Below, in pieces: positions 1-49,840 of a stretch of 64,000 nt of DNA. The position numbers and the translations under genes were made by a program. The stretch's first letter is position 1; each line of letters begins with the position of its first letter. Source of the DNA: Escherichia coli (GTDB lineage: Bacteria > Pseudomonadota > Gammaproteobacteria > Enterobacterales > Enterobacteriaceae); NCBI RefSeq assembly GCF_002854065.1, contig NZ_CP024147.1; one strand, 5' to 3'. The notes below the pieces were generated by a model that was not told the origin of the DNA, did no database searches, and was given only the letters and a program-made list of their open reading frames with translations.

Positions 1-515
1 GCCCCTTTAGCGGGTACCATGCCTGCTTTTTCAATTTCTTTGTCATTCGCAAAAAATTGATTAAAGGTAATATTAAAAACTGTCGGATTATCAACGCGGA
101 GCTGATTACCGTTACGCGTAAATCGCAGTTCATTTGGCGCGGTTTTTACATCACCCTTTAAACCTGCCGGGCGATAAAAAAGTTTGATTCGGGTGCGAAC
201 GGCAATCTGCAAAACATTTTTGTTTTCGCTGTCGTCACTTTTAGATGGAATGGCTTTCACATTAACCCAGTAGACCGATTCGCGATCCTGAGGCAGGCCG
301 GGCGTAATATTCACAATACGCAAAATATTGTTCTTTTCTGGATCAAGCTTGAATAGTGGGGGCGTAATAATAAACGGTGTTTTTTTGCTGCCCGCGGCAT
401 CATCCACCCAGGATTGGATAAGAAACTCTTCCGTCTTACTTTTATTCTGTACGGTCAGCGGGTGATGCTGCCAACTTACTGATTTAGTGTATGATGGTGT
501 TTTTGAGGTGCTCCA

Positions 516-791
516 GTGGCTTCTGTTTCTATCAGCTGTCCCTCCTGTTCAGCTACTGACGGGGTGGTGCGTAACGGCAAAAGCACCGCCGGACATCAGC
601 GCTATCTCTGCTCTCACTGCCGTAAAACATGGCAACTGCAGTTCACTTACACCGCTTCTCAACCCGGTACGCACCAGAAAATCATTGATATGGCCATGAA
701 TGGCGTTGGATGCCGGGCAACTGCCCGCATTATGGGCGTTGGCCTCAACACGATTTTACGTCACTTAAAAAACTCAGGCCGCAGTCGGTAA
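516..791 (+). CDS. insA: IS1 InsA (91 aa)
   Basis: ORF track. Canonical InsA sequence [30 protein letters not shown]. Confidence 0.95.
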
Positions 792-1213
792 CCTCGCGCA
801 TACAGCCGGGCAGTGACGTCATCGTCTGCGCGGAAATGGACGAACAGTGGGGCTATGTCGGGGCTAAATCGCGCCAGCGCTGGCTGTTTTACGCGTATGA
901 CAGTCTCCGGAAGACGGTTGTTGCGCACGTATTCGGTGAACGCACTATGGCGACGCTGGGGCGTCTTATGAGCCTGCTGTCACCCTTTGACGTGGTGATA
1001 TGGATGACGGATGGCTGGCCGCTGTATGAATCCCGCCTGAAGGGAAAGCTGCACGTAATCAGCAAGCGATATACGCAGCGAATTGAGCGGCATAACCTGA
1101 ATCTGAGGCAGCACCTGGCACGGCTGGGACGGAAGTCGCTGTCGTTCTCAAAATCGGTGGAGCTGCATGACAAAGTCATCGGGCATTATCTGAACATAAA
1201 ACACTATCAATAA
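710..1213 (+). CDS. insB: IS1 InsB / InsAB' transposase (frameshift at the A-run upstream)
   Basis: ORF track. Canonical InsB sequence. The A6C slippery run TTAAAAAACTC lies in the insA/insB overlap. Confidence 0.95.
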
Positions 1214-1380
1214 GTTGGAGTCATTACCCGGTCAGCGAGGCTTCTTTCTTACTGCCATCATAAATTACGCGAGTAGAGCTAAGTCCGACGCCACCCGCCA
1301 GAACTGACTGTGAAAGGAACAGAGAGAGAGCCAACGCAACAAATTTACTTTTCATCATTCGATCCATGAACTTTGACGAC

Positions 1381-1400
1381 TAATGGCGGCAATTACGCCG
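1381..1400 (-). other. Intercistronic stem-loop (GGCGGC-AATTA-GCCGCC) between the fimbrial major subunit and the chaperone
   Basis: Perfect 7-bp inverted repeat seen in sequence. This is the typical position for an mRNA-stabilising or attenuating hairpin in chaperone-usher operons. Confidence 0.4.
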
Positions 1401-1419
1401 CCATTTGTAAAACGGACGA

Positions 1420-1944
1420 TTACTCGTAAGACAGGTTGAAATCGACCTGCGCATTGCCGTAACCGGTCGTTACCGTTGCCAGAGTTGAAACGTAGTTGGC
1501 GGTAAAGTAGAGAACCGTCTGGCCTGTTTTCAGGTCAACACTTGCTTTACCACCGTTAAGAGCGACCAGGGTGTTGCTGTTATCATAAATACCGATACCA
1601 ACACCTTTGGCCGCACCTGCTTCAGTGCTAACAGAAATCAGATCAGATTTATCTGCATCACCAACACCAGTAAAGCTCACATTGGCTTTTTTCATCGTTG
1701 TGGTATCGCAATCTTCCAGTTTGATTTCGAAAGGTTTCGCCGGGGATTTGTCACCAACCGCAGCAAATACAGATTTTTGTACCTGACCCAACACAACTTC
1801 CTGGTTCTGAGAGTCAACGGACAGTACGCAAGGTGAATCCACGATCTCGCCTGTAAATTTAACCGTACCATCACCAGATTCTGCTGCAAATGCAGAGCCG
1901 GAGGTTAACGCCAGTGCAGTTAAGGCAAAAACGACCTTTTTCAT
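1420..1944 (-). CDS. lpfA: Fimbrial major subunit (long polar fimbriae LpfA-like)
   Basis: MKKVVFALTALALTSGSAFA signal peptide, the fimbrial subunit Cys pair and a C-terminal beta-strand motif. It sits between yhjX and the chaperone gene, as in the lpf locus. Confidence 0.8.
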   Translation of the reverse strand: MKKVVFALTALALTSGSAFAAESGDGTVKFTGEIVDSPCVLSVDSQNQEVVLGQVQKSVFAAVGDKSPAKPFEIKLEDCDTTTMKKANVSFTGVGDADKSDLISVSTEAGAAKGVGIGIYDNSNTLVALNGGKASVDLKTGQTVLYFTANYVSTLATVTTGYGNAQVDFNLSYE

Positions 1945-2237
1945 GAAAAACTCCATTTTATTAAATCACATTAATTAGCAAATAGTGATGCTTTAACATT
2001 GCATCAACTTTGAAGGCGGGATTATACAAATAAACAAGGAAAAGAAAATTAAGAGGATAAAATATCAATAAATTAAGAAAGTGTGAATTTTGATTTAAAT
2101 CACTAAGTTGCCTTTCGGGATAAAAAATCAGGAATGATTTTTAGGAAAAAACAAATACAAAATATCAATTAATCAATCCATATACATTCACTTTGTAAAT
2201 ATATAGAGTTTTGTAATCTCCTTATTATTTTAAACGA

Positions 2238-2270
2238 AAAAAAGGGGCTCTCTCGCCCCTTCGTTAATAA
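2238..2270 (-). terminator. Rho-independent terminator downstream of yhjX (AGGGGC-tctctc-GCCCCT plus a T-run on the minus strand)
   Basis: GC-rich hairpin followed by AAAAAAA on the plus strand, which is a T-run on the minus strand. It lies immediately 3' of the yhjX stop. Confidence 0.6.
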
Positions 2271-2284
2271 CCAACGCCATCTCA

Positions 2285-3487
2285 TTAAATATGCGCCTCA
2301 CGCAACACTTTCTGCTGCGGCTGGCGAATGGTGGTGGAAAGTGCCAGGGAAATAATCAGCAGAGCAAAGATGACGCAGAAAGTCACATAAAATCCACCGA
2401 ATAGCGAGGCGATAATCGAACCGCAAATGCTGCCGATACCAAAACCGAGGTAAATCACACCGTAGTTTTTCGCCAGATTATTGAGGCCGAAGAACTCACT
2501 AACCAGTGACGGGAAAACGGTAATGGTGCCGCCGAAGTTAAATGCTACACAAGCAATCGCGGCGAAGAATGTTAACGCGTTAAGCGGTGCAAACAGCAGA
2601 GCAGCCATGCCCACCAGTGACACTACCTGACCAATGGTGATGACGCGAATACGCGAGATTTTGTCAGACAGAATACCCAGCACCAGGCGCCCGCTAAGGT
2701 TGGCGATGGAAATAACAGTGACTGCATTGGCTGCAGAAACCACATCAAGGTGTGCCAGACTTTGGGCGATATCTTTCGCTACCCCAATCACGTACAGGCC
2801 GCTCATGCAGGCAGTCAGGAACATTACCGCTAACATCCAGTACTGCGGTTTACGCATCGACTCTGCCAGCGTGTAATCTTTCTCCACCACACCATTGCTG
2901 GTTTTCACTTCCTGTTTTGGTGCGTCTTTCATTAACGTTGCGCCGAAAACAATCATCACCAGCGCAATCGCTCCCCAAATCACAAAGGTTTTTTCCAGAC
3001 CGACCGTTTCCAGCAGCTGCGTGTCGATAAATTTGAAACCCAGGCTACCCAGACCATAAGAACCGATAGCGAACGCGGAGATCAGACCTTTACGCTCCGG
3101 GAACCATTTCACGCAGTTAGAGAGCGTCAGCAGGTAACCCGCGCCATCCGCCAGACCGACCAGCACACCGGCGCTTAACCACAGCATCATCAGGTTGTCA
3201 GAATGCGCTGTCAGGAAGAACCCTAATCCCAGCAAAATGCCGGAAGCGATGGTGACGCGTTTAACACCAAAACGTTCCTGCAATTTGCCCGCAACAGAAG
3301 ACGAAATTGCCAGCCCCAGACTTAACAAGCCGAAAGAGAAAGCGACCTGGCTTACCGGCGCATCCAGCTTGGCGGAAAGCGCGCCGTTAAACAGGCTCCA
3401 GGTATAAACCGACCCCAGCGCAAACTGGGTAATGATAGTACCGATGAGTGTCAGCCAGCGGGTACGCTGATAATTTGAAGGTGTCAT
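2285..3487 (-). CDS. yhjX: MFS transporter of the oxalate/formate antiporter family, YhjX
   Basis: ORF track. N-terminus MTPSNYQRTRWLTLIGT (the track ORF is extended 15 codons upstream). Synteny with yhjY/tag. Confidence 0.85.
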   Translation of the reverse strand: MTPSNYQRTRWLTLIGTIITQFALGSVYTWSLFNGALSAKLDAPVSQVAFSFGLLSLGLAISSSVAGKLQERFGVKRVTIASGILLGLGFFLTAHSDNLMMLWLSAGVLVGLADGAGYLLTLSNCVKWFPERKGLISAFAIGSYGLGSLGFKFIDTQLLETVGLEKTFVIWGAIALVMIVFGATLMKDAPKQEVKTSNGVVEKDYTLAESMRKPQYWMLAVMFLTACMSGLYVIGVAKDIAQSLAHLDVVSAANAVTVISIANLSGRLVLGILSDKISRIRVITIGQVVSLVGMAALLFAPLNALTFFAAIACVAFNFGGTITVFPSLVSEFFGLNNLAKNYGVIYLGFGIGSICGSIIASLFGGFYVTFCVIFALLIISLALSTTIRQPQQKVLREAHI

Positions 3488-3601: not shown

Positions 3602-3715
3602 TTAGTTCAGGAATGAATGACGCGACAATTATTCACCAAATTTATTATTTGGTAAGTTAGCACCCACTATCGCCACAACTATTGTTATTCAATGGTTTCA
3701 ATTGTGATTGTTACG

Positions 3716-4420
3716 TTAAAATCTGGCACTAACCCCCATCGTATACAGATAATCGCTATTGTTAGTGGTATTTTCTGCCTGAGATAGCGCGGCATAGGCG
3801 GCAATATTTTGATTGAGCAACATATCAGCGCCTACGGTGACATCCAGCCAGTTGCCGTTCTGGTTTGTCGCCGTCATCCGGCTCAGGCCTGATTGCGCCT
3901 TCCAGATATTCTCGCCAAATTGCTGGTTATAGCTGATTTGCGCCCAGGGTCGGAGATCGCCAAGCCGGGAGTCAACACGCCAGCCTAAGGTACTCACGCT
4001 GGCATGCCATAACGGATCGGTCAGCGTGGTAGTACTGTCGCCAAACTCGTTATACATCGAGGTGGTTGTGCCATCGTAATGTAATGCCGCGACCGGGCCA
4101 GTTGTAACCTGTTCATATAAAGGAAAATTCCAGCCCATACTCATACTGCTGGTCACATCCACAGGGGTTTCTTCCGCCAGATTGACTTCCAGTCCCAGCG
4201 CCCTTTGGCTACTTTGAATACGTTGCGACAAAATATCGTTGTAATCAGGTTGATGATCACTATCCCAGGTGTAACGCTCTGTGGAATGCCCGGGTTGCGT
4301 ATCAACGATATATTCTTGTTGCCAGGCGTAAGCTGTGTTGAGAAAAAAGGCACTGATTACCACACTCGCCAGCAGGCTTAGCTGCCAGCGACCACCGCTT
4401 TTTTTTATGATCATTAACAC
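3716..4420 (-). CDS. yhjY: Outer-membrane protein YhjY (autotransporter beta-domain-like)
   Basis: ORF track, 234 aa, signal peptide, C-terminal aromatic residue. Synteny. Confidence 0.75.
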   Translation of the reverse strand: MLMIIKKSGGRWQLSLLASVVISAFFLNTAYAWQQEYIVDTQPGHSTERYTWDSDHQPDYNDILSQRIQSSQRALGLEVNLAEETPVDVTSSMSMGWNFPLYEQVTTGPVAALHYDGTTTSMYNEFGDSTTTLTDPLWHASVSTLGWRVDSRLGDLRPWAQISYNQQFGENIWKAQSGLSRMTATNQNGNWLDVTVGADMLLNQNIAAYAALSQAENTTNNSDYLYTMGVSARF

Positions 4421-17330: not shown

Positions 17331-17421
17331 TAGACTGGCCCCCTGAATCTCCAGACAACCAATATCACTTAAATAAGTGATAGTCTTAATACTAGTTTTT
17401 AGACTAGTCATTGGAGAACAG

Positions 17422-17787
17422 ATGATTGATGTCTTAGGGCCGGAGAAACGCAGACGGCGTACCACACAGGAAAAGATCGCAATTGTTCAGCAGAGCTTTG
17501 AACCGGGGATGACGGTCTCCCTCGTTGCCCGGCAACATGGTGTAGCAGCCAGCCAGTTATTTCTCTGGCGTAAGCAATACCAGGAAGGAAGTCTTACTGC
17601 TGTCGCCGCCGGAGAACAGGTTGTTCCTGCCTCTGAACTTGCTGCCGCCATGAAGCAGATTAAAGAACTCCAGCGCCTGCTCGGCAAGAAAACGATGGAA
17701 AATGAACTCCTCAAAGAAGCCGTTGAATATGGACGGGCAAAAAAGTGGATAGCGCACGCGCCCTTATTGCCCGGGGATGGGGAGTAA
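17422..17787 (+). CDS. insC: IS2 OrfA (InsC) transposase HTH subunit
   Basis: [56 protein letters not shown]... Confidence 0.93.
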
Positions 17788-18650
17788 GCTTAGTCAGCCG
17801 TTGTCTCCGGGTGTCGCGTGCGCAGTTGCACGTCATTCTCAGACGAACCGATGACTGGATGGATGGCCGCCGCAGTCGTCACACTGATGATACGGATGTG
17901 CTTCTCCGTATACACCATGTTATCGGAGAGCTGCCCACGTATGGTTATCGTCGGGTATGGGCGCTGCTTCGCAGACAGGCAGAACTTGATGGTATGCCTG
18001 CGATCAATGCCAAACGTGTTTACCGGATCATGCGCCAGAATGCGCTGTTGCTTGAGCGAAAACCTGCTGTACCGCCATCGAAACGGGCACATACAGGCAG
18101 AGTGGCCGTGAAAGAAAGCAATCAGCGATGGTGCTCTGACGGGTTCGAGTTCTGCTGTGATAACGGAGAGAGACTGCGTGTCACGTTCGCGCTGGACTGC
18201 TGTGATCGTGAGGCACTGCACTGGGCGGTCACTACCGGCGGCTTCAACAGTGAAACAGTACAGGACGTCATGCTGGGAGCGGTGGAACGCCGCTTCGGCA
18301 ACGATCTTCCGTCGTCTCCAGTGGAGTGGCTGACGGATAATGGTTCATGCTACCGGGCTAATGAAACACGCCAGTTCGCCCGGATGTTGGGACTTGAACC
18401 GAAGAACACGGCGGTGCGGAGTCCGGAGAGTAACGGAATAGCAGAGAGCTTCGTGAAAACGATAAAGCGTGACTACATCAGTATCATGCCCAAACCAGAC
18501 GGGTTAACGGCAGCAAAGAACCTTGCAGAGGCGTTCGAGCATTATAACGAATGGCATCCGCATAGTGCGCTGGGTTATCGCTCGCCACGGGAATATCTGC
18601 GGCAGCGGGCTTGTAATGGGTTAAGTGATAACAGATGTCTGGAAATATAG
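17745..18650 (+). CDS. insD: IS2 OrfB (InsD) transposase catalytic subunit (DDE)
   Basis: 301 aa, overlapping the -1 frame with insC. rve integrase-core motifs. Confidence 0.93.
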
Positions 18651-18723
18651 GGGCAAATCCAGATATTTTGTTGTCCATCACAGTATTCCTTTCATTCCTG
18701 AATGTGTAAGAGCTTTATATTGC

Positions 18724-32912: not shown

Positions 32913-33054
32913 TTATGTGATCGCGCCCAGGTCATCCCTGACAGTAAATCCCAGTTCATTAGAAATAGCCTGCGCGGTTTCACGCAGTGGTTTCAGGAGA
33001 TTTTTCTCCCCCACCTGTTTCAGACGTGATGTCGAAAGCGAAATCGACACGGCA
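32913..33054 (-). pseudogene. yiaJ: 3'-terminal remnant (~46 codons) of an IclR-family regulator gene (yiaJ-like), truncated by the inserted AraC–GPH–GH127 cassette
   Basis: Minus-strand translation gives ...VSISLSTSRLKQVGEKNLLKPLRETAQAISNELGFTVRDDLGAIT* (stop at 32913..32915). It resembles the C-terminal effector domain end of IclR proteins. In K-12, yiaJ occupies this position. Confidence 0.5.
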
Positions 33055-33855
33055 CTACGAATTGATATGTTCCTTGCTGTAACGCCGCTTCCACGCTGCT
33101 GGCGTTAAACCGGTGTGTTTGCGAAAAATCTGCCGGAAATAGCCAACGTCATTAAACCCGCACAACGCCGCCACTTCCGTGAGCGATCGCGCTTCGCTAA
33201 TTAACAGCTTTTCGGCTTCGCGCACCCGCTGGCGATGGATTGCTTCTGTTAACGTCAGATGAAACACCCGCCGGTAGACGCGCCCAAGATAATCGGCATT
33301 GCAGTACAGCTCGCGGGCCAGAAGCGCCGTAGAAAGCGGGCGATGATATTGCGTGCGGATCAGTTTCTGCGCTTTCCAGGCAAGGGTGGTGCCTGCGCCA
33401 TCGGCCTGTTCATCAAGACGCGCGTCACGGGTGAGCTGCTGCAAAATGAGCAGCACAATAAACTCCAGCGCCGGAGTGCGTTGATGCTTTTCCTGTTCGC
33501 TTAAGAACTGGCGAAACAGGGCCACCAGCGCCTGCGGATCGACAACCTTCGTTTGTTGCGGCACGCTAAGATGAGTAAGCCAGCGAGGGTCGTTGTCCGG
33601 CGCTTTAACCTCAAAATGCAGCCAGTAAAATTTGAGATCGGCGGGAAAATCCTCCACCCCAACATGTTGTCGGTTCGGCCAGAGTAATAAACTCTCTCCC
33701 GCATCGACCAGAAATATCCGTTCTTCTTCCTGAATCGTTAATCGACCTTTTTCGACAAAGATAATTTCCCATGACTCCAGCCGCCTTGCAGGATGCCTCC
33801 CTACGCCACGGGAAATAAATAATCCACCATTTTGCACTTTAATCGGTAACGTCAT
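33055..33855 (-). CDS. AraC/XylS-family transcriptional regulator (N-terminal cupin sugar-binding domain plus C-terminal HTH)
   Basis: C-terminal AraC HTH signature (...LTEVAALCGFNDVGYFRQIFRKHTGLTPAAWKR). Divergent from the downstream transporter gene. Not part of the K-12 backbone. Confidence 0.8.
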   Translation of the reverse strand: MTLPIKVQNGGLFISRGVGRHPARRLESWEIIFVEKGRLTIQEEERIFLVDAGESLLLWPNRQHVGVEDFPADLKFYWLHFEVKAPDNDPRWLTHLSVPQQTKVVDPQALVALFRQFLSEQEKHQRTPALEFIVLLILQQLTRDARLDEQADGAGTTLAWKAQKLIRTQYHRPLSTALLARELYCNADYLGRVYRRVFHLTLTEAIHRQRVREAEKLLISEARSLTEVAALCGFNDVGYFRQIFRKHTGLTPAAWKRRYSKEHINS

Positions 33856-33918
33856 GGATAATTCGAGCATTGATATGTAATTTCCCGCTTATTCATTAAT
33901 GATTAAACACATTACCTT

Positions 33919-33933
33919 TTGATTATTAATCAA
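33919..33933. promoter_or_regulatory. 15-bp perfect palindrome TTGATTATTAATCAA in the divergent AraC-regulator / transporter promoter region. Candidate operator.
   Basis: Read directly from the sequence, in a 225-bp AT-rich intergenic region with additional ATTAAT repeats. Confidence 0.35.
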
Positions 33934-34095
33934 AAACATTAATTTCACCTGATCTATTTCACACTTTTAAATTCAGGTCGGAATCGTCACCTTTTTTTAC
34001 TCTTTTCTCGCCTTGTTGATATTCCCGTTCACGGCAGAATTAATCAGGTCATTTCAATAAAACTAAAAATTGCTCCCTATTCACGAGGAATATCT

Positions 34096-35496
34096 ATGAC
34101 CTCTACACCGATTACTACCGCTGATATCGCTAAAGGTAAAATTGACGATGCGTTATCTGTACGGGAAAAAATAGGCTACGGCCTGGGTGACGCAGGCGGC
34201 ACCGTAATAACTTGCCTGATCATGAATTTTCTCACCTTTTTCTACACCGACGTTTTTGGATTAACTCCGGCGCTGGTTGGCACGCTGTTTATTGCACTGC
34301 GCGTGTTTGATGCCATCTCCGACCCGGTGATGGGCGTCATTGCCGACCGGACGCAAAGTCGCTGGGGGCGCTTTCGTCCGTGGCAGCTATGGATTGCCAT
34401 TCCCATCGGCATTATCGGCATCCTGACGTTCACCGTGCCAGATGCCAGCATGGGAGTAAAAATCGCCTGGGCGTTCGGTACTTACCTGCTCCTTTCAGTC
34501 GGTTATACCGCCATCAACGTACCGTACTGCGCGCTGATCAACACCATGACCACCCGCCACAATGAAGTGATCTCCTGCCAGTCCTGGCGATTCGTTCTCT
34601 GTGGCGTAGCGGGATTTCTGGTTTCGGTAGGCTTACCGTGGATGGTAGATCTCTTCGGTCAGGGTAATGCCGCGCGCGGCTATCAATTGGGCGTCGGCGT
34701 GCTGTGCGCCATTGCCGTGGTGATGTTCCTGTGCTGTTTTTTCTGGGTTCGTGAACGGGTGCCACTCTCCACAATGGGGAAATTTACCCTGCGCGAACAT
34801 CTTGCCGGGCTGCGGAACAACGACCAACTGCTGCTGATGCTGGTCATGTCTTTCCTGCTGATTAACGTCTTTAACATTCGCGGCGGTGGGTATATGTACT
34901 TCATTACCTACGTCTTACAAGGCAGTACGGGCTACACGTCGCTGTTCTTCACCATGGTCACCTTCGCCTCCATTATCGGCTCGGTGATTGTCAGCCCGTT
35001 AACGCGGCGTTTCGATACCGTCAAAATTTACTACTACACCAACCTGCTCCTCGCTGCGCTGGCAGTGTTGATGTGGTTCCTGCCCTCCGGCCCGGCTTAT
35101 CAAACGCTGTGGCTGGCGGTGATCCTCGGTAATGGCGTAATTCTTGGCTTCACATTGCCACTGCACTTCTCATTGATGGCCTTTGCCGATGACTACGGCG
35201 AGTGGAAAACCCGCGTACGTTCTTCCGGCATGAACTTCGCCTTCAATCTGTTTTTCATCAAGCTGGCCTGGGCCTCCAGCGCCGGGATCATCAGCCTGCT
35301 GTTTATTTTTGTCGCCTACCAGCCTGGCGTGGAAAACCAGACCGCCAGTTCGCTTGGCGGGATCGCGGCGATGGAAACATTACTGCCTGCGCTATTCCAC
35401 CTGCTGCTGGCAGGGGCGATCCGCTTTTGCAAACTCAATCATCCTATGATGTCACGCATAGCTACCGACCTGCGTCAGCGTCATGTACAGCCTTAA
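34096..35496 (+). CDS. GPH-family (MelB/XylP/YicJ-like) glycoside-pentoside-hexuronide:cation symporter
   Basis: 466 aa, 12-TM profile, GPH signature (GYGLGDAG...[25 protein letters not shown]). Confidence 0.85.
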
Positions 35497-35506
35497 GGAG
35501 CACAAG

Positions 35507-37477
35507 ATGAACATTTCGGAAGTCGATCTGCATAAACTGACGGTCAGCGATCCGTTCCTCGGTCAGTACCAACAACTGGTCCGCGACGTGGTGATTCCTT
35601 ATCAGTGGGATGCTTTGAACGATCGTATCCCAGAAGCGGAACCCAGCCATGCGATTGAAAACTTTCGCATTGCCGCCGGACTTCAGGAGGGTGAATTTTA
35701 CGGGATGGTGTTTCAGGACAGCGACGTCGCCAAATGGCTGGAAGCAGTAGCCTGGTCGCTGTGCCAGAAGCCGGACGCCGAACTGGAAAAAACCGCCGAC
35801 GAGGTGATTGAACTGGTCGCCTCCGCCCAGTGCGAAGACGGCTATCTCAATACTTACTTTACGGTAAAAGCACCCGAAGAACGCTGGAGCAATCTGGCGG
35901 AGTGTCATGAACTTTACTGCGCAGGTCATCTGATTGAAGCCGGAGTCGCCTTCTTCCAGGCCACGGGAAAACGGCGCTTGCTGGGGGTCGTTTGCCGCCT
36001 GGCCGATCATATCGACAGCGTATTTGGTCCAGATGAAAGTAAGTTACACGGTTATCCTGGTCACCCGGAAATTGAACTGGCACTAATGCGCCTGTATGAA
36101 GTGACTGAAGAGCCGCGCTACCTGGCGCTGACGAACTATTTTGTCGAACAGCGTGGTGCGCAACCGCACTATTACGACCAGGAATATGAAAAGCGCGGGC
36201 AGACATCGCACTGGCACACCTACGGCCCGGCATGGATGGTGAAAGACAAAGCCTACAGCCAGGCACATTTGCCCCTTGCGCAACAGCAAACCGCCATCGG
36301 TCACGCGGTACGTTTTGTCTATCTGATGACCGGCGTCGCGCATCTCGCGCGTTTAAGTCACGATGACAGCAAGCGTCAGGACTGCCTGCGGCTGTGGAAC
36401 AATATGGCCCAGCGTCAGTTATATATTACCGGCGGCATTGGCTCGCAAAGCAGCGGCGAAGCGTTCACTAGCGATTACGATCTGCCGAATGACACGGTAT
36501 ACGCTGAAAGTTGCGCCTCCATCGGCCTGATGATGTTTGCCCGACGAATGCTGGAAATGGAAGGCGACAGTCAATATGCCGATGTGATGGAGCGCGCACT
36601 GTACAACACCGTGCTCGGCGGCATGGCGCTGGATGGCAAACATTTCTTCTATGTGAATCCGCTGGAAGTACATCCAAAATCGCTGAAATTCAACCATATC
36701 TACGATCACGTTAAACCGATCCGCCAGCGTTGGTTTGGCTGCGCTTGTTGTCCGCCAAATATCGCCCGCGTGCTGACCTCGATTGGTCATTATCTCTACA
36801 CGCCGCGTGAAGATGCGTTGTATATCAACATATACGCAGGAAACAGCATGGAAGTGCCGGTAGAAAATGGCACGCTGCGCCTGCGGGTTAGCGGGAACTA
36901 TCCGTGGCAGGAGCAGGTGACGATTGCGGTTGAATCGCCCCAGCCGGTACGTCATACGCTGGCTTTACGTCTGCCGGACTGGTGCACACAGCCGCAGATC
37001 ATATTGAATGGGGAAGAGGTCGAGCAGGATATTCGTAAAGGGTATTTGCACATTACCCGCGAATGGCAGGAGGGCGATACGCTGAATCTGACTTTGCCGA
37101 TGCCGGTACGCCGCGTTTACGGTAACCCGCTGGTGCGTCACGTCGCCGGAAAAGTGGCGATTCAGCGCGGCCCGCTGGTGTATTGCCTGGAACAGGCCGA
37201 CAACGGCGAGTCACTGCATAATCTGTGGCTGCCCACCGATGCGCCATTTACGACATTTGAAGGCAAGGGATTGTTTAGCCATAAGATCTTAATCCAGGCA
37301 CCGGGTTACCGGTATGAACAGAGCAATCCAGAGCAGCAACCGCTGTGGCATTACGACAGCGCGCCAGCCAAACGCCAGACGCAAACTCTGACCTTTATCC
37401 CATGGTTTAGCTGGGCCAACCGGGGTGAAGGCGAAATGCGGATCTGGGTGAATGAGGAAAAGCATTGCCATCCGTAG
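35507..37477 (+). CDS. Glycoside hydrolase family 127 (DUF1680; HypBA1-like beta-L-arabinofuranosidase)
   Basis: 656 aa. Conserved GH127 regions (NTYFTVKAPEERWSNLAECHELYCAGHLIEA; WFGCACCPPNIARVL, a Cys-rich Zn/catalytic motif). SD AAGGAG lies 7 nt upstream. The start is 10 nt after the transporter stop, suggesting an operon. Confidence 0.8.
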   Translation: MNISEVDLHKLTVSDPFLGQYQQLVRDVVIPYQWDALNDRIPEAEPSHAIENFRIAAGLQEGEFYGMVFQDSDVAKWLEAVAWSLCQKPDAELEKTADEVIELVASAQCEDGYLNTYFTVKAPEERWSNLAECHELYCAGHLIEAGVAFFQATGKRRLLGVVCRLADHIDSVFGPDESKLHGYPGHPEIELALMRLYEVTEEPRYLALTNYFVEQRGAQPHYYDQEYEKRGQTSHWHTYGPAWMVKDKAYSQAHLPLAQQQTAIGHAVRFVYLMTGVAHLARLSHDDSKRQDCLRLWNNMAQRQLYITGGIGSQSSGEAFTSDYDLPNDTVYAESCASIGLMMFARRMLEMEGDSQYADVMERALYNTVLGGMALDGKHFFYVNPLEVHPKSLKFNHIYDHVKPIRQRWFGCACCPPNIARVLTSIGHYLYTPREDALYINIYAGNSMEVPVENGTLRLRVSGNYPWQEQVTIAVESPQPVRHTLALRLPDWCTQPQIILNGEEVEQDIRKGYLHITREWQEGDTLNLTLPMPVRRVYGNPLVRHVAGKVAIQRGPLVYCLEQADNGESLHNLWLPTDAPFTTFEGKGLFSHKILIQAPGYRYEQSNPEQQPLWHYDSAPAKRQTQTLTFIPWFSWANRGEGEMRIWVNEEKHCHP

Positions 37478-41451: not shown

Positions 41452-42990
41452 TCAGAACAGCCCCAACGGTTTATCTGAGTAGCTCACCAGCAGGCACTTG
41501 GTTTGCTGGTAATGCTCCAGCATCATCTTGTGGGTTTCGCGTCCAATGCCTGATTGTTTGTAGCCGCCAAACGCCGCATGTGCCGGGTAAGCGTGATAAC
41601 AGTTGGTCCACACGCGCCCGGCCTGAATGCCGCGCCCCATCTTATAGGCCAGATTACCGTTGCGGCTCCAGACGCCTGCGCCCAGGCCATATTGCGTATC
41701 GTTCGCCAGCTCCAGCGCTTCTTCCATCGTTTTGAAGGTGGTCACCGCCAGCACCGGGCCAAAAATCTCTTCCTGGAACACCCGCATATTGTTCTGACCA
41801 AACAGAATCGTCGGTTCAAGGTAGTAGCCGTCTTTCAGTTCGCCTTCCAGCAGCTTGCGCCGCCCGCCGGTGAGCACGTCTGCGCCCTCTTTTTTACCGA
41901 TATCAATGTAGTTGAGGATGGTTTCCAGTTGCCCGTGAGAAACCTGCGCACCCATTTGCGTCACGCTGTCGAGTGGGTTACCGCTGCGAATGCTTTCGAC
42001 ACGGCGGATGGCGCGTTCCATAAAGCGTTCGTAGATTGACTCCTGCACTAAGGCACGACTCGGACAGGTGCAAACTTCGCCCTGGTTAAAGGCAAACAGT
42101 GCAAAGCCTTCCAGCGCTTTATCGAAAAAGGCATCTTCTTCATCCATCACATCAGCAAAGAAGATATTTGGCGACTTACCGCCCAACTCCAGCGTCACCG
42201 GAATAATGTTTTGCGTTGCGTATTGCATAATTTGTTGGCCCACTTCCGTTGAGCCGGTAAACGCCACTTTGGCGATGCGTTTCGAGGTCGCCAGATATTC
42301 GCCAATTTCCCCACCTGCGCCATTGACCACGTTCACCACGCCCGGCGGCAGTAAATCACCGACAATTTCCATTAGCAGCAGTACAGAAAGCGGGGTAAGA
42401 CGTGCGGGTTTCAGCACCACACAGTTGCCCGCCGCCAGCGCGGGAGCCATTTTCCAGCTCGCCATCAGCAGCGGGAAGTTCCACGGGATAATCTGCCCCA
42501 CCACGCCTAACGGTTCATGGAAATGATAGGCCACGGTTTCGCTATCAACTTCACTGATCCCACCTTCCTGCGCCCGAATACACGAGGCGAAATAGCGGAA
42601 ATGGTCAATCGCCAGCGGTACATCCGCAGCACTGGTTTCGCGAATGGGTTTGCCGTTATCCCAGGTTTCAGCTGTCGCTAACAGCTCGAGGTTTTGTTCC
42701 ATTCGATCGGCAATCTTAAACAGAATCGCCGCGCGATCCTGCACCGAGGTGTGCGCCCATTTATCTTTCACTTTGTGCGCAGCATCCAGCGCCAGATCGA
42801 TGTCTCGTTTGCCCGAAGACGCCACTTCGCACAGCAGCTGCCCGGTCACCGGCGTCAGGTTCTGGTAATACTCACCATCGGCAGGGGCTACCCATTCGCC
42901 GCCAATAAAGTTGTCATAGCGGTTTTTTAACTTGAGGGGGAAACCATACTCGCCGGGCTTAATCTGTGCTGAAGGGGGATTATTGGTCAT
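41452..42990 (-). CDS. aldB: Aldehyde dehydrogenase B (NADP-dependent)
   Basis: [36 protein letters not shown]..., 512 aa. The track ORF is extended 46 codons at the 5' end. Confidence 0.93.
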
Positions 42991-43154
42991 GATCGTCTCC
43001 TTGCGGTGTGAGGTATAACAAGGGTAGACGTGACTGGCGAAATCTTCGCCAGTCGGTAACAGCTTTACGACAGCTATCACGAATTTACGGGCAAGGATTA
43101 CAGAGATAGTTGAAAAAGCGGCTGACAATTTGCCAGCCGTTGTTGGAATGATGA

Positions 43155-44167
43155 TTACATTGCGGCGCGATAAATCGCCACAATTTCTTCGTGAGTTGCC
43201 TGGATCGGGTTAGTAAAGCCACAGGCATCTTTCAGGGCATTAGTCGCCAGAACCGCGAAATCTTCTTCTTTCACGTTCAGGTCGCGTAGGCCTGCCGGGA
43301 TATCCACTTTCTTCGCCAGTTCACGGATGGCGTTAATGCAGGCTTCAGCACCTTCCGCGTCGTTTTTACCTGTCACGTTCACGCCCATTGCAGCGGCACA
43401 GTCACGCAGACGTGCAGCGGCGACTTTGCTGTTGAATACCTGAACATGCGGCAGCAGAACGGCGTTACATACACCGTGTGGCAGGTTGTAGAAACCGCCC
43501 AGCTGGTGCGCCATCGCATGAACATAACCCAGAGAAGCATTATTGAACGCCATACCGGCGAGGAACTGGGCATAAGCCATTGCTTCACGCGCTTTCGCAT
43601 TACTGCCATCTTCAACGGCTAACGGCAGGTTTTCGGCAATCATGGTCACGGCTTTCAGTGCACAAGCGTCAGTGATCGGCGTGGCGGCAATAGAAACATA
43701 CGCTTCGATAGCGTGCGTTAAGGCATCCATACCCGTTGCGGCGGTCAGTGACTTCGGCATACCAATCATCAGAGAGGAGTCATTGACAGAAAGCAGCGGA
43801 GTGACATGTTTATCAACAATCGCCATTTTGATATGACGCGCTTCGTCAGTGATGATGCAGAAACGGGTCATTTCAGAGGCCGTACCCGCCGTGGTATTGA
43901 TGGCGATCATCGGCAGCTGCGGTTTTGCAGAGCGGTCAACGCCTTCGTAATCGCGAATATCGCCGCCATTGGCTGCCACCAGCGCAATACCTTTTGCGCA
44001 GTCGTGCGGAGAACCACCGCCTAAGGAAATCACGCTATCGCAATTATTTTCTTTAAGTAATTTCAAACCTGCAGCGACGTTTTCCGTGGTGGGGTTAGGT
44101 TGGGTGCCATCATAAATAATGCTAAAAATATTGCGTTCTTCCAGTGCTTTTTGCACATCGCCCGCCA
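43155..44167 (-). pseudogene. yiaY: Fe-containing alcohol dehydrogenase YiaY, 5'-truncated by IS1 (promoter and first ~47 codons missing)
   Basis: The frame continues ...[15 protein letters not shown] straight into the IS1 terminus at 44168. No yiaY 5' sequence lies on the other side of the IS. Confidence 0.8.
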
Positions 44168-44182
44168 GGTAATGACTCCAAC

Positions 44183-44686
44183 TTATTGATAGTGTTTTAT
44201 GTTCAGATAATGCCCGATGACTTTGTCATGCAGCTCCACCGATTTTGAGAACGACAGCGACTTCCGTCCCAGCCGTGCCAGGTGCTGCCTCAGATTCAGG
44301 TTATGCCGCTCAATTCGCTGCGTATATCGCTTGCTGATTACGTGCAGCTTTCCCTTCAGGCGGGATTCATACAGCGGCCAGCCATCCGTCATCCATATCA
44401 CCACGTCAAAGGGTGACAGCAGGCTCATAAGACGCCCCAGCGTCGCCATAGTGCGTTCACCGAATACGTGCGCAACAACCGTCTTCCGGAGACTGTCATA
44501 CGCGTAAAACAGCCAGCGCTGGCGCGATTTAGCCCCGACATAGCCCCACTGTTCGTCCATTTCCGCGCAGACGATGACGTCACTGCCCGGCTGTATGCGC
44601 GAGGTTACCGACTGCGGCCTGAGTTTTTTAAGTGACGTAAAATCGTGTTGAGGCCAACGCCCATAATGCGGGCAGTTGCCCGGCAT
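44183..44686 (-). CDS. insB: IS1 InsB
   Basis: Protein identical to copy A. Confidence 0.95.
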
Positions 44687-44880
44687 CCAACGCCATTCAT
44701 GGCCATATCAATGATTTTCTGGTGCGTACCGGGTTGAGAAGCGGTGTAAGTGAACTGCAGTTGCCATGTTTTACGGCAGTGAGAGCAGAGATAGCGCTGA
44801 TGTCCGGCGGTGCTTTTGCCGTTACGCACCACCCCGTCAGTAGCTGAACAGGAGGGACAGCTGATAGAAACAGAAGCCAC
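44605..44880 (-). CDS. insA: IS1 InsA
   Basis: Protein identical to copy A. Confidence 0.95.
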
Positions 44881-44962
44881 TGGAGCACCTCAAAAACACC
44901 ATCATACACTAAATCAGTAAGTTGGCAGCATCACCTATTATTGTTTAGCAAAATTAATCTAA

Positions 44963-45002
44963 TAAAAAGCACATTGTATTCATTAAACAATGTGCTTTTT
45001 TT
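44963..45002. terminator. Bidirectional rho-independent terminator (AAAAAGCACATTGT-attcatta-AACAATGTGCTTTTTTT) in the 85-bp segment between the two IS1 copies. Presumptive native selB terminator.
   Basis: Perfect 10-bp stem with A/T runs on both sides. Confidence 0.75.
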
Positions 45003-45035
45003 AAAATCATAAGAATTTTGGGTAATGACTCCAAC

Positions 45036-45539
45036 TTATTGATAGTGTTTTATGTTCAGATAATGCCCGATGACTTTGTCATGCAGCTCCACCGATTTTG
45101 AGAACGACAGCGACTTCCGTCCCAGCCGTGCCAGGTGCTGCCTCAGATTCAGGTTATGCCGCTCAATTCGCTGCGTATATCGCTTGCTGATTACGTGCAG
45201 CTTTCCCTTCAGGCGGGATTCATACAGCGGCCAGCCATCCGTCATCCATATCACCACGTCAAAGGGTGACAGCAGGCTCATAAGACGCCCCAGCGTCGCC
45301 ATAGTGCGTTCACCGAATACGTGCGCAACAACCGTCTTCCGGAGCCTGTCATACGCGTAAAACAGCCAGCGCTGGCGCGATTTAGCCCCGACGTATCCCC
45401 ACTGTTCGTCCATTTCCGCGCAGACGATGACGTCACTGCCCGGCTGTATGCGCGAGGTTACCGACTGCGGCCTGAGTTTTTTAAATGGCGGAAAATCGTG
45501 TTGAGGCCAACGCCCATAATGCGGGCGGTTGCCCGGCAT
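45036..45539 (-). CDS. insB: IS1 InsB (variant: C5R, T17P, S18P, L19F, S65R)
   Basis: ORF track comparison with 44183..44686. Confidence 0.93.
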
Positions 45540-45733
45540 CCAACGCCATTCATGGCCATATCAATGATTTTCTGGTGCGTACCGGGTTGAGAAGCGGTGT
45601 AAGTGAACTGCAGTTGCCATGTTTTACGGCAGTGAGAGCAGAGATAGCGCTGATGTCCGGCAGTGCTTTTGCCGTTACGCACCACCCCATCAGTAGCTGA
45701 ACAGGAGGGACAGCTGATAGAAACAGAAGCCAC
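45458..45733 (-). CDS. insA: IS1 InsA (variant: L81F)
   Basis: ORF track. Confidence 0.93.
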
Positions 45734-45831
45734 TGGAGCACCTCAAAAACACCATCATACACTAAATCAGTAAGTTGGCAGCATCACCGAATTTTGTATT
45801 AATTTATTTTAAAACTTAATTAATCATTTCC

Positions 45832-47676
45832 TTATTTTTCCGGAAATAATAATGCGTCGCGCAATAAATGATCATTTCCACGACGACGCGTAAAGCCAAT
45901 GCGGTCAAAATATTCCAGGATTTGAATCGCCAGTTTTCGCCCAACCCCTAAGCGATCGCGGAAATCCGCCGCGCAGGTTGAACCACATTCCTGATCGAGA
46001 TCGCGGATCATATTGGCAAACTCGACAATCCGATCGTTACGGTAATAACGATCTTTGACGATCGCGGTAATTATCCCCTGTTGGGCCGCCTGGCGTAGCG
46101 TCAGACGCATTGCCTGCTCGTCGGTTCCCGTCTCTTTTGCCAGGTCACGCACCCACCACGGTTCGTCACCAAACAGCGGCTCTGCTTTTTGCCAGATGGC
46201 CTGCTGCTCTTCGCTGAAGCCCGCTTTGTGATCCGGCAGATGCAGCCAACCGTGATGACTGAGGATGTCGCCGCTTTCGCGCATCTTTTCAATCAGCAAC
46301 AGTACCAGCGCTTCATCTTCCATTGGCAACGCCATACGTCGCAGACGTTCGCGCCCAGGACCAGGTTCATCGCGATGTTGCTCATGATAAGTCGCTAATG
46401 TGTCGAGAATTTTCCGCTGCCAGCGGGCGGCAACTGGCGCATTCAACAAGCTATAACCAGCCTGAATATAGCCCGGCTGTTGCAGTAGTTCGCGCATCCC
46501 TTCGCCGTTGAGCTGGCGTGCCCAGGCGAAATCCGCAAGGTTAACCGCTCCGCGTTCCAGATGAACAGATAACGCATCGGCATCGCTCTGCGCCCGTGCA
46601 AGAGACGCCAGCCATTGCAGATATTCCGGCTTACGTTTACCGCGACGCGGCGGGTTAAGCATCACCACACGTGCCCCCGCCAGCGTATTGCGGGCCGAGA
46701 TATCGCGCAACACTAAGCGATCGTTATCCGCCAGCCACAGCGGCGTGTCGAACACCAGCTCGGCAAGGTTATCTTCCAGCAGCGAAACGCGTCCCGTAAC
46801 GTGGCTGGCGGCGTGGTGAATATGCAGCGGCTGCCACTGGGTCAGCGGCGTATGGGTTTGAAGCTCGACAATCACCCGCGTGAACGGCTCTGGCGGCACA
46901 TCGGCAAGCAGCCAGTCGCCACGGTTAATCTGCTCTTTTTCCGCATCCCCCGCGATGTTAAGCGCGATACGCTGGCCGGCATGAGCGGTTTCTGTTGGCT
47001 GGTTTTGTGCATGCAGCGCACGTACACGCATCGGTTTATTTACACCAGTCAGCCATAGTGAATCGCCTACCGTCACTTCCCCGCTTAACGCCGTACCGGT
47101 GACGACCAGCCCGGCACCTTTTACGGTAAATGCGCGGTCGATCGCGAGGCGGAAACTATGTTGGCTGGCGTGTTCACGTTCTGGTAACTGAAGCAGATGC
47201 TCGCGCAGGGCATCAATTCCCCGACCCTCGGTTGCTGCGGTGATAAACAGTTTTGCCTCAGCAAAACCGTATTCCCGCAGCACCTCCTTTACCTGGCGTT
47301 CAACCTCATTAACACGCGCTTCGTCCACGCGATCGGCTTTGGTCAGCGCCACTGTCAGCATCGGGTTACCGGTCAGCTGCAAAATCGCCAGATGCTCACG
47401 GGTCTGTGCCATCACACCGTCATCGCACGCCACCACCAACAGCGCGTGATCGATACCACCAACGCCCGCCAGCATGTTGGAAAGAAACTTTTCATGACCG
47501 GGTACGTCGATAAAACCAGGCACGCGACCATCCGGCTGCGGCCAGTAGGCATAGCCGAGATCGATGGTCATGCCGCGCTTTTTTTCTTCCGGCAGACGAT
47601 CGGCATTTACGCCAGTAATCGCCTGCAATAAGGTTGTTTTGCCGTGGTCAACGTGTCCGGCAGTCGCAATAATCAT
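45832..47676 (-). CDS. selB: Selenocysteine-specific elongation factor
   Basis: 614 aa, G domain [11 protein letters not shown]. Confidence 0.96.
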
Positions 47677-49770: not shown

Positions 49771-49840
49771 GCCGAGTCCTTTGTGCGAGGAAAAATATCA
49801 GTATGGCTCAGGCTCACGCAAAACACAGGTGATATAAGTC

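Follow-up and report, generated by a model that had tools for sequence, protein, structure and literature searches.

Two directly repeated IS1 copies of different types beside a truncated yiaY at the selB–yiaY locus of Escherichia coli

The selB–yiaY interval of the E. coli chromosome analysed here carries two IS1 copies in the same orientation, separated by a spacer of 85 bp, and raises the question of how this pair and the adjoining loss of the 5′ end of yiaY came about. The window, a stretch of 64,000 nucleotides that comprises the locus, contains four IS elements, is contiguous without a break and is collinear with K-12. A first-pass annotation of this DNA had described the two direct repeats, taken the selB-proximal one (copy C) for a simple insertion 43 bp past selB, placed a bidirectional terminator in the retained 85 bp, and noted that the yiaY-proximal one (copy B) lacks a target duplication, that yiaY has lost its promoter and 5′ codons and that this 5′ sequence does not lie on the far side of B. 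Each of these observations was borne out, the positions of B (44168..44935, minus strand) and C (45021..45788, minus strand) to the base, with the terminator as a prediction. The arrangement is genuine but represents ordinary IS1 behaviour at a repeatedly targeted spot, by a mechanism that is already known.

Both copies are IS1 family insertion sequences. Each is 768 bp long and is bounded by imperfect terminal inverted repeats of roughly 23 bp that match at 18 of 23 positions (GGTGATGCTGCCAACTTACTGAT / GGTAATGACTCCAACTTATTGAT). An intact InsA of 91 residues and an InsB reading frame of 167 residues are present in either copy, together with an A6C frameshift site at element position 307 and an open InsAB′ fusion frame of 232 residues. 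The Pfam domains Zn_ribbon_InsA, HTH_Tnp_IS1 and DDE_Tnp_IS1 are recognized in B as well as in C, with E-values of 1e-21 to 1e-78 and above the curated cut-offs. Target duplications amount to 8 bp at C, 9 bp at a third copy in the window, A, and none at B, where the adjoining deletion accounts for the absence.

B and C differ from each other by nine substitutions, all of them within element positions 325-669 (98.8% identity). Copy B agrees with K-12 IS1A at 767 of 768 positions; the one difference, at element position 507 (as read on the plus strand), is a synonymous change in insA ahead of the frameshift site, so that InsA is identical to that of K-12 IS1A and InsAB′ should be as well. With IS1A and IS1E of K-12 ('type I', the consensus IS1), copies A and B share length and near-identity, whereas B is set apart from them by its single nucleotide, its location and the lack of a target duplication. 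Copy C matches K-12 IS1B at 766 of 768 positions and differs from IS1A by 9 nt, carrying the IS1B base at eight of the nine positions that distinguish IS1B from IS1A; it is thus like IS1B and IS1C ('type II') except for two nucleotides. Since B is of the IS1A type and C of the IS1B type, the two copies arrived separately. The difference in type is a point absent from the first-pass annotation.

Copy A (461..1228, plus strand) is a simple insertion with a 9-bp duplication, CGGTCAGCG, and interrupts a fimbrial-chaperone-like reading frame. It lies 43 kb from B in the opposite orientation, is identical to it over 768 of 768 positions and could be the source of B or its sibling. The transposase type encoded by B is the active one in K-12, IS1 transposes replicatively within the chromosome, and type II has been reported to be almost unable to transpose in K-12 (PMC12428005). 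IS1B-like copies are nonetheless found at several sites of the selB–yiaY locus in wild strains. The InsB variant of copy B is widespread, occurring in 6,362 blocks of the genome collection.

The nine differences also bear on whether the pair might be an assembly artefact, produced by duplication of one IS1 or by mis-joining of a repeat. Repeats of 768 bp that lie 85 bp apart are unresolvable by short reads alone, and neither the 5,426 complete E. coli genomes nor the species-representative genomes or JGI metagenome contigs yielded a match to the B–C arrangement. Yet the differences between the copies follow two known natural IS1 types, the target duplication of copy C is clean, the four junctions all fall at sites known or expected for IS1, and the window runs unbroken through its four IS elements, which together make such an error very improbable.

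Copy C was inserted between the stop codon of selB and the selB terminator. Its 8-bp target duplication, GAATTTTG, is present on both sides (45013..45020, corresponding to positions 3975-3982 of the K-12 locus L001, and 45789..45796), and the selB stop codon (45832) follows 43 bp away. The selB gene itself (45832..47676, minus strand) is intact and encodes 614 residues, and the exact protein is present in many E. coli assemblies. On the other side of C, the 85-bp spacer (44936..45020; L001 3898-3982) is the native yiaY–selB intergenic sequence, with 100% identity to the related loci L003-L010. It harbours a predicted bidirectional hairpin (44964..45000) with a perfect stem of 14 bp (44964-44977 / 44987-45000) and a 9-nt loop, bordered by an A-run and a T-run, so that in RNA the stem is followed by UUUUUAUU or UUUUUUU. 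Predicted folding energies are -20.1 kcal/mol (z -4.2) on the selB strand and -16.6 kcal/mol (z -3.5) on the other. By its stable stem-loop followed by a U-run the hairpin classes as a putative rho-independent terminator; a simple terminator scan missed it because the loop exceeds the 8-nt limit of that scan. A search for RNA families (Rfam, E-value up to 1) returned none at 42000-47000. From its position, the hairpin is the predicted native selB terminator, now displaced from selB by 776 bp. The selB or selAB transcript would hence have to run through copy C, in the same sense as insA-insB′, to reach its terminator. The separation of selB from its terminator had likewise gone unmentioned in the first-pass annotation.

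Two direct IS1 copies that bracket a short segment recall the layout of Tn9 (IS1-cat-IS1), and B, the 85 bp and C might have moved in together as a composite transposon of this kind. In contrast to Tn9, however, the spacer is native and in place, in register with the flank beyond C via the duplication of C; the two IS1 copies are independent and of different types, and the outer ends of the unit share no duplication (CGCCCGCCA versus GAATTTTG). The alignment to intact relatives refutes the Tn9-type reading, to which we assign next to no weight.

The counterpart of the spacer is the yiaY side of copy B. Alignment to K-12 (L001), as the first-pass annotation had proposed, and to the intact relatives L003-L009 (flanks 99.9-100%) defines the deleted interval as 208 bp, which B replaces: 69 bp upstream of yiaY and 139 nt of coding sequence (46 codons plus 1 nt). 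The promoter region, the ribosome-binding site, the start codon and the first 46 codons of yiaY are therefore missing, and the 208 bp are absent from the whole 64-kb window, chance 11-mers apart. What is left of the gene (43155..44167, minus strand; aligned to L001 2677-3689) comprises two nucleotides of codon 47, codons 48-383 and the stop codon. The description of B as abutting yiaY in-frame at codon ~48 is accurate as to position, in that B joins yiaY within codon 47, leaving 48 as the first whole codon, but 'in-frame' is inconsequential, because IS1 contains no start codon in the yiaY frame and the insB frame differs. The longest open reading frame in the remnant spans 333 residues from a GTG at 44156, and the Pfam Fe-ADH profile aligns to positions 44-167 of 168 only, compared with 1-167 in an intact relative. 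An exact-protein look-up of the 333-residue remnant gave no record. yiaY is thus an IS1-truncated pseudogene, and its annotation should say so.

The flanks of copy B read CGCCCGCCA on the yiaY side and TATTATTGT on the spacer side and hence form no duplication. CGCCCGCCA (44159..44167; L001 3681-3689) is a 9-bp recurrent IS1 target within yiaY that adjoins the IRR end of B, and TATTATTGT, the first 9 bp of the 85-bp spacer, marks the other endpoint of the deletion. At the junctions themselves, yiaY ends in …CATCGCCCGCCA and IS1 begins with GGTAATGACTCC…, and IS1 is followed by TATTATTGTTTAGC at the spacer. An inversion between A and B, considered as a cause of the missing duplication, is excluded by the perfect 9-bp duplication of A and by collinearity with K-12.

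Judged by its endpoints, the deletion is IS1-mediated. It starts exactly at the terminal base of an intact IS1, lacks a target duplication, and has as its IS-distal endpoint CGCCCGCCA, which serves as an IS1 target in strains LR-71-1 and cM8a. IS1-mediated adjacent (replicative) deletions were reportedly described by Turlan and Chandler in 1995, and the classical gal deletions by IS1 are said to go back to Reif and Saedler in 1975. With such classical deletions the present one shares the start at an IS1 terminus, the intact IS1, the absence of a duplication and a far end that is an IS1 target, whereas here the event is reconstructed from its end product, without a precursor having been found. 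Adjacent deletions in general run from the terminus of an element to a target site, IS1 and Tn9 being among the examples (PMC9330008).

We propose that the locus was shaped by three separate IS1 events, the last of which was probably an adjacent deletion arising from intramolecular replicative transposition. In what order these events took place, which way the deletion ran and that its cause was transposition and not recombination are what we infer from the sequence. An IS1B-type copy, C, would first have inserted 43 bp past the selB stop codon with an 8-bp duplication, placing 768 bp between selB and its terminator. An IS1A-type copy, B, would then have inserted nearby in the same orientation, either at CGCCCGCCA in codons 44-47 of yiaY or at the AT-rich intergenic TATTATTGT. 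Finally, B may have used one of its ends to attack a further target in the same molecule, at a distance of 217 bp; this would have eliminated the DNA in between along with one IS1 copy and connected the remaining IS1 to the new target, leaving no duplication. The outcome would be the yiaY pseudogene, which has no promoter, start codon or ribosome-binding site and whose Fe-ADH nucleotide-binding domain is short of its first 46 codons.

The first-pass annotation had called the structure the signature of an IS1-mediated adjacent deletion. The structure does fit one, but recombination between two IS1 copies yields exactly the same. In that case two same-orientation IS1A-type copies, with duplications of CGCCCGCCA and TATTATTGT, would have recombined in a RecA-dependent manner, one copy and the intervening DNA would have been lost, and B would be the hybrid survivor. 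IS–IS recombination is a recognized cause of missing target duplications (PMC11708052), and the final sequence is identical to that from the transpositional route. Moreover, the region is rich in IS1, strain E3 carries a pair of IS1 copies within yiaY, and the B–C pair itself shows that the lineage accumulates neighbouring copies of the same orientation. Recombination nevertheless requires one more rare insertion than the route from a single IS1, and an IS1 end at L001 3898, the spacer endpoint, is found in 0 of 5,426 complete E. coli genomes. B also displays no mosaic of IS1 types, though two identical parents would leave none. Taken together, these points make recombination between two IS1A-type copies possible but rather doubtful. 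A recombinant of B with C, by comparison, is ruled out, as B has the IS1A-type base at all nine diagnostic positions and is identical to A.

Searches for intermediates of the proposed transpositional route covered 5,426 complete E. coli genomes, species-representative genomes and JGI metagenome contigs, and revealed no precursor in which IS1 had simply inserted at one or the other endpoint. The exact yiaY–IS1 and IS1–spacer junctions had no match in the species-representative genomes and JGI metagenome contigs, and junction-spanning megablast of the 5,426 complete genomes gave neither an identical junction nor a one-copy recombinant. Among the relatives retrieved, the closest carry the locus intact. 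A look-up of the exact SelB protein yielded many near-identical E. coli loci with intact yiaY, as well as one, L010, in which a different IS1 event, in inverted orientation, had taken place; the B–C structure was present in none of these loci.

Both insertion sites are used by IS1 in other strains, in which IS1 ends lie within one base of the yiaY junction of B and of the site of C. In LR-71-1 and cM8a, IS1 is directly followed by CGCCCGCCATACC, the other half of the CGCCCGCCA target, and strain I3 has a simple IS1 insertion with a duplication at L001 3680-3688, one base off CGCCCGCCA. Each of the three strains has its own IS1 sequence, and flanks that diverge from the window by ~3%. The AT-rich intergenic stretch with the TATTATTGT endpoint contains about ten other IS1 sites, none at exactly that base. 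Overall, 30 of the 5,426 genomes are hit, at 20 distinct positions within ~510 bp; junction queries over these genomes pick up one IS1 orientation only, and an orientation bias is therefore not claimed. IS1-bounded deletions also start from the yiaY and intergenic target sites: in LR-71-1 and cM8a they run leftward as far as yiaN and yiaM, and in TOK-001 and 2015C-3121 as far as yiaN and yiaJ. Recurrent use of both sites is another point that the first-pass annotation lacks.

On balance, we lean slightly towards regarding CGCCCGCCA, in codons 44-47 at the 5′ end of yiaY, and (A)GAAWTTTG, in the 3′ untranslated region of selB, as IS1 hot spots defined to within one base, which IS1 elements of different types have struck independently in unrelated lineages of E. 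coli and which repeatedly seed deletions in both directions. They cannot give the direction of the present deletion, because both of its endpoints are transposase-chosen targets either way. If the hot-spot reading is correct, it would imply a local DNA determinant, for instance bent or H-NS/IHF-bound AT-rich DNA beside a GC-rich 9-mer, and possibly also selection for loss of yiaY, and the locus could be used as a natural test of the rules by which IS1 chooses its targets. In practice the locus matters chiefly for annotation; its broader significance is limited, though it does provide a useful natural data set on IS1 target choice.

An occasional collapse of the 853-bp direct repeat unit to a single hybrid IS1 is to be expected and could serve as a lineage marker; the repeat is also a pitfall for short-read assembly. 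The first-pass annotation had considered two such close repeats unusual to find maintained. This does not hold: two same-orientation IS1 ends within ~600 bp occur in 78 records from 75 of the 5,426 complete E. coli genomes, and the 25 records listed of these 78 are all plasmids. In the two plasmid records examined, the IS1 pair, which lies beside a UvrD-like helicase gene and, in pEC147566-1, iutA, resembles B and C in orientation and in its spacing of 79-83 bp. Its spacer is unrelated, however, and its copies are 95% identical with one frameshifted, whereas B and C are 98.8% identical and both intact.

Both IS1 elements, copy B at 44168-44935 and copy C at 45021-45788, are complete (768 bp); 85 bp separate them, and their insA and insB are read from the minus strand, as are yiaY and selB. 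By every structural test both are IS1. In each, the terminal inverted repeats agree at 18 of 23 positions, InsA is 91 aa long, the A6C frameshift site falls at element position 307 and the InsAB' frame stays open for 232 aa; Pfam recognises Zn_ribbon_InsA, HTH_Tnp_IS1 and DDE_Tnp_IS1 domains in both. The directly repeated pair recorded in the first-pass annotation is thus confirmed in all observed details.

Alignment to K-12 MG1655 (L001, NC_000913.3 3754000-3762000), the check that the annotation had proposed, shows that the window and K-12 are collinear across the yiaY-selB region and defines the deleted interval. Window 42900-44167 corresponds to L001 2422-3689, 44936-45020 to 3898-3982, and 45789 onward to 3975 onward. 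Since L001 3975-3982 is present on both sides of copy C as the 8-bp duplication GAATTTTG, copy C is a simple insertion; as described, it follows the selB stop codon at a distance of 43 bp. Copy B replaces L001 3690-3897, and its flanks CGCCCGCCA and TATTATTGT display no duplication. Of the 208 bp lost, 69 bp lie upstream of yiaY and 139 nt are the start of its coding sequence (46 codons and one further base). The same interval was obtained with seven intact relatives (L003-L009), which were located via the exact SelB protein and whose flanks are 99.9-100% identical to the window. The missing 208 bp are absent throughout the 64-kb window; yiaY 5' sequence beside an IS elsewhere would have spoken against the deletion, and its absence here favours the earlier reading. 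The yiaY remnant has no promoter, ribosome-binding site or ATG, covers only positions 44-167 of the Pfam Fe-ADH profile, and is probably a dead gene.

Copies B and C differ by 9 substitutions, all within element positions 325-669. Copy B is identical (768/768) to copy A, an IS1 of opposite orientation at 461-1228 with a perfect 9-bp target duplication CGGTCAGCG (452-460 and 1229-1237), and both are one base away from K-12 IS1A. The InsA of copy B is unchanged compared with K-12 IS1A and, as the base change lies upstream of the frameshift site, its InsAB' should also equal the K-12 form. Copy C is two bases from K-12 IS1B/IS1C and nine from IS1A. As B and C belong to different IS1 types, they arrived independently and neither was copied from the other. 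Copy B is not a B/C recombinant, since it has the IS1A-type base at 9 of 9 diagnostic positions, and gene conversion has not homogenised the pair. An assembly artefact is unlikely, given that the copies correspond to two different IS1 types known from nature and all junctions are biologically sensible. In K-12, nearly all IS1 transposition has been attributed to the IS1A/IS1E type, and the IS1B type is reported to be almost inactive (PMC12428005). IS1B-type elements occupy at least six different sites in the locus studied here (wild-strain loci L013, L015, L016, L019 and L010, plus copy C); evidently the type does transpose in nature, perhaps relying on transposase from other copies. Copy A interrupts a minus-strand ORF for a PapD-like fimbrial chaperone, and window 1-2290 has no counterpart in the compared K-12 interval (NC_000913.3 3705000-3795000).

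The deletion beside copy B begins directly at the terminal base of an intact IS1, lacks a duplication and ends at target sites used by IS1. Transpositional deletion and recombination between IS copies are the usual reasons for a missing duplication (PMC11708052). In the first case, intramolecular replicative transposition of a single IS1 would generate an adjacent deletion and yield the structure of copy B. Adjacent deletions extend from an element terminus to a target site, with IS1/Tn9 among the listed makers (PMC9330008, a review), and replicative IS1 transposition within the chromosome has been demonstrated (PMC12428005). Alternatively, two same-orientation IS1A-type copies, one inserted at each endpoint, could have undergone homologous recombination. 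This would yield the same final sequence, and the lineage clearly tolerates neighbouring IS1 copies, but one more rare insertion is needed. For that reason we moderately favour adjacent deletion by one IS1 and regard recombination between two copies as possible but distinctly less probable. Hence the IS1-bounded deletion of the first-pass annotation stands, whereas its assignment to adjacent deletion was too specific. In the long-term evolution experiment, IS150-linked deletions passed through a prior simple insertion (PMC11708052). The hot-spot data do not tell which way the deletion ran: they are symmetrical, because both endpoints are transposase-chosen in either case. Among the 5,426 complete E. 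coli genomes compared, only the window has an IS1 end abutting L001 3898, and no precursor or one-copy derivative was found in these genomes, in species-representative genomes or in JGI metagenome contigs. Insertion of a whole Tn9-like composite is ruled out, as the 85 bp belong to this site and continue in register into the flank, and the two outer flanks are not alike; likewise, the own duplication of copy A and the intact synteny rule out an inversion between copies A and B.

The arrangement is textbook IS1 biology at a recurrent IS1 target. Junction-spanning queries, which detect one IS1 orientation only, located an IS1 IRL end within ~510 bp of the selB end in 30 of the 5,426 genomes, at 20 distinct positions deduced from match spans and checked by direct mapping in nine fetched loci. 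If ~58,000 chromosomal IS1 ends were spread uniformly over 5-Mb genomes, roughly 3 genomes would be expected to have one within a 514-bp interval in a single orientation. The enrichment is thus about ten-fold, though related genomes are not independent. Both window sites are hit again elsewhere within one base. At the yiaY junction of copy B (…CGCCCGCCA followed by IS1; target L001 3681-3689), strain I3 carries a simple insertion of a divergent IS1 with duplication 3680-3688 and an intact other side. In LR-71-1 and cM8a, IS1 is directly followed by CGCCCGCCATACC, and the other side is deleted to yiaN (IS1B-like element) and to yiaM (element identical to IS1A), respectively. The selB flanks of these two strains are ~3% different from the window and their IS1 copies differ at 14 positions; as the strains are closely related, the tally is at least three independent events, all within one base. 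Their near-identical flanks, set against different IS1 copies and deletion endpoints, suggest either independent hits at one base or gene conversion that replaced the IS1 sequence. At the site of copy C, EC931 has a simple insertion of an IS1A-like element (duplication 3974-3982), and TOK-001 shares this right junction with an IS1B-like element and a deletion to yiaN; the flanks of the two are only 98.4% identical. Similarly, 2012EL-2448 harbours a simple insertion at 3948-3956, and 2015C-3121 combines the same right junction with a deletion reaching yiaJ. Simple insertions and deletions recurring from the same junctions imply that IS1 insertion followed by IS1-bounded deletion is a repeated history here. 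The only mildly new point is that both target sites recur almost base-precisely across lineages. IS1-bounded deletions of 8-12 kb occur in four complete genomes (L027, LR-71-1; L028, cM8a; L016, TOK-001; L017, 2015C-3121). Each runs from an IS1 site of the yiaY-selB interval and takes out aldB together with the genes up to yiaN, yiaM or yiaJ. Strain E3 (L015) has two IS1B-type copies within yiaY (1376-2143 and 2624-3391), ~480 bp apart in opposite orientations, each with its own 9-bp duplication.

The 85-bp spacer is native intergenic DNA. As predicted by the first-pass annotation, it contains a putative bidirectional terminator: a perfect 14-bp stem (44964-44977 / 44987-45000), with an A-run on one side and a T-run on the other, resembles an intrinsic terminator in either direction and is calculated to fold stably on the selB strand (-20.1 kcal/mol, z-score -4.2) and on the other strand (-16.6 kcal/mol, z-score -3.5). 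A simple terminator scan missed this hairpin, which has a 9-nt loop (scan maximum 8), and an Rfam search of the region gave no family match. Because copy C separates the selB stop codon from the hairpin, the selAB transcript must cross copy C, in sense to insA-insB', before terminating; the hairpin would shield copy B from this read-through. In K-12, read-through from upstream is reported to raise IS1 transposition (PMC12428005). A draft contig that shares the SelB allele (L011 7846-7920) breaks off within the loop of the selB terminator hairpin, which could reflect a further IS insertion or an assembly break.

Copies B and C share identical runs of 324, 134 and 99 bp, and low-rate RecA-dependent collapse to one hybrid copy is therefore expected. 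For such a pair, direct-repeat deletion in E. coli is expected at roughly 1e-5 to 1e-4 per generation, and neutral collapse at this rate would not quickly remove it. Same-orientation IS1 pairs with both ends within ~600 bp were found in 75 of the 5,426 genomes (78 records). There is thus no support for calling the maintenance of such a pair unusual. Each of the 25 records listed is a plasmid. The pairs on the two examined have gaps of 79-83 bp and lie beside a UvrD-like helicase gene (L023 814-2417) or this gene and iutA (L024 814-2421); the other 23 match them near-identically. Unlike the window pair, the plasmid copies are 95% identical with one frameshifted, and their spacer is unrelated.

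With three IS1 and one IS2 in 64 kb, the window points to an IS-rich E. coli or Shigella-like background. The IS2-like element, a 1,330-bp insertion relative to K-12 within yiaA (~17332-18661), has ORFs of 136 aa and 301 aa for IS2-like proteins, and its ends (TAGACTGGCCCC… / …GGGCAAATCCA) also resemble those of IS2. At 33054-37179, a 4.1-kb cluster coding for an AraC-type regulator, an MFS transporter and a GH127-like glycosidase takes the place of ~9 kb of K-12 sequence (from within plaR/yiaJ via yiaK to sgbE); in L010 the same cluster adjoins a rearranged IS1. The K-12 rhsA-yibU block is missing at 49807-49840, and a 6.5-kb insert between yibL and lldP (56627-63177) contains a 227-aa lipoprotein-like ORF and a 1,737-aa repeat-rich, trimeric-autotransporter-like protein (57898-63111).
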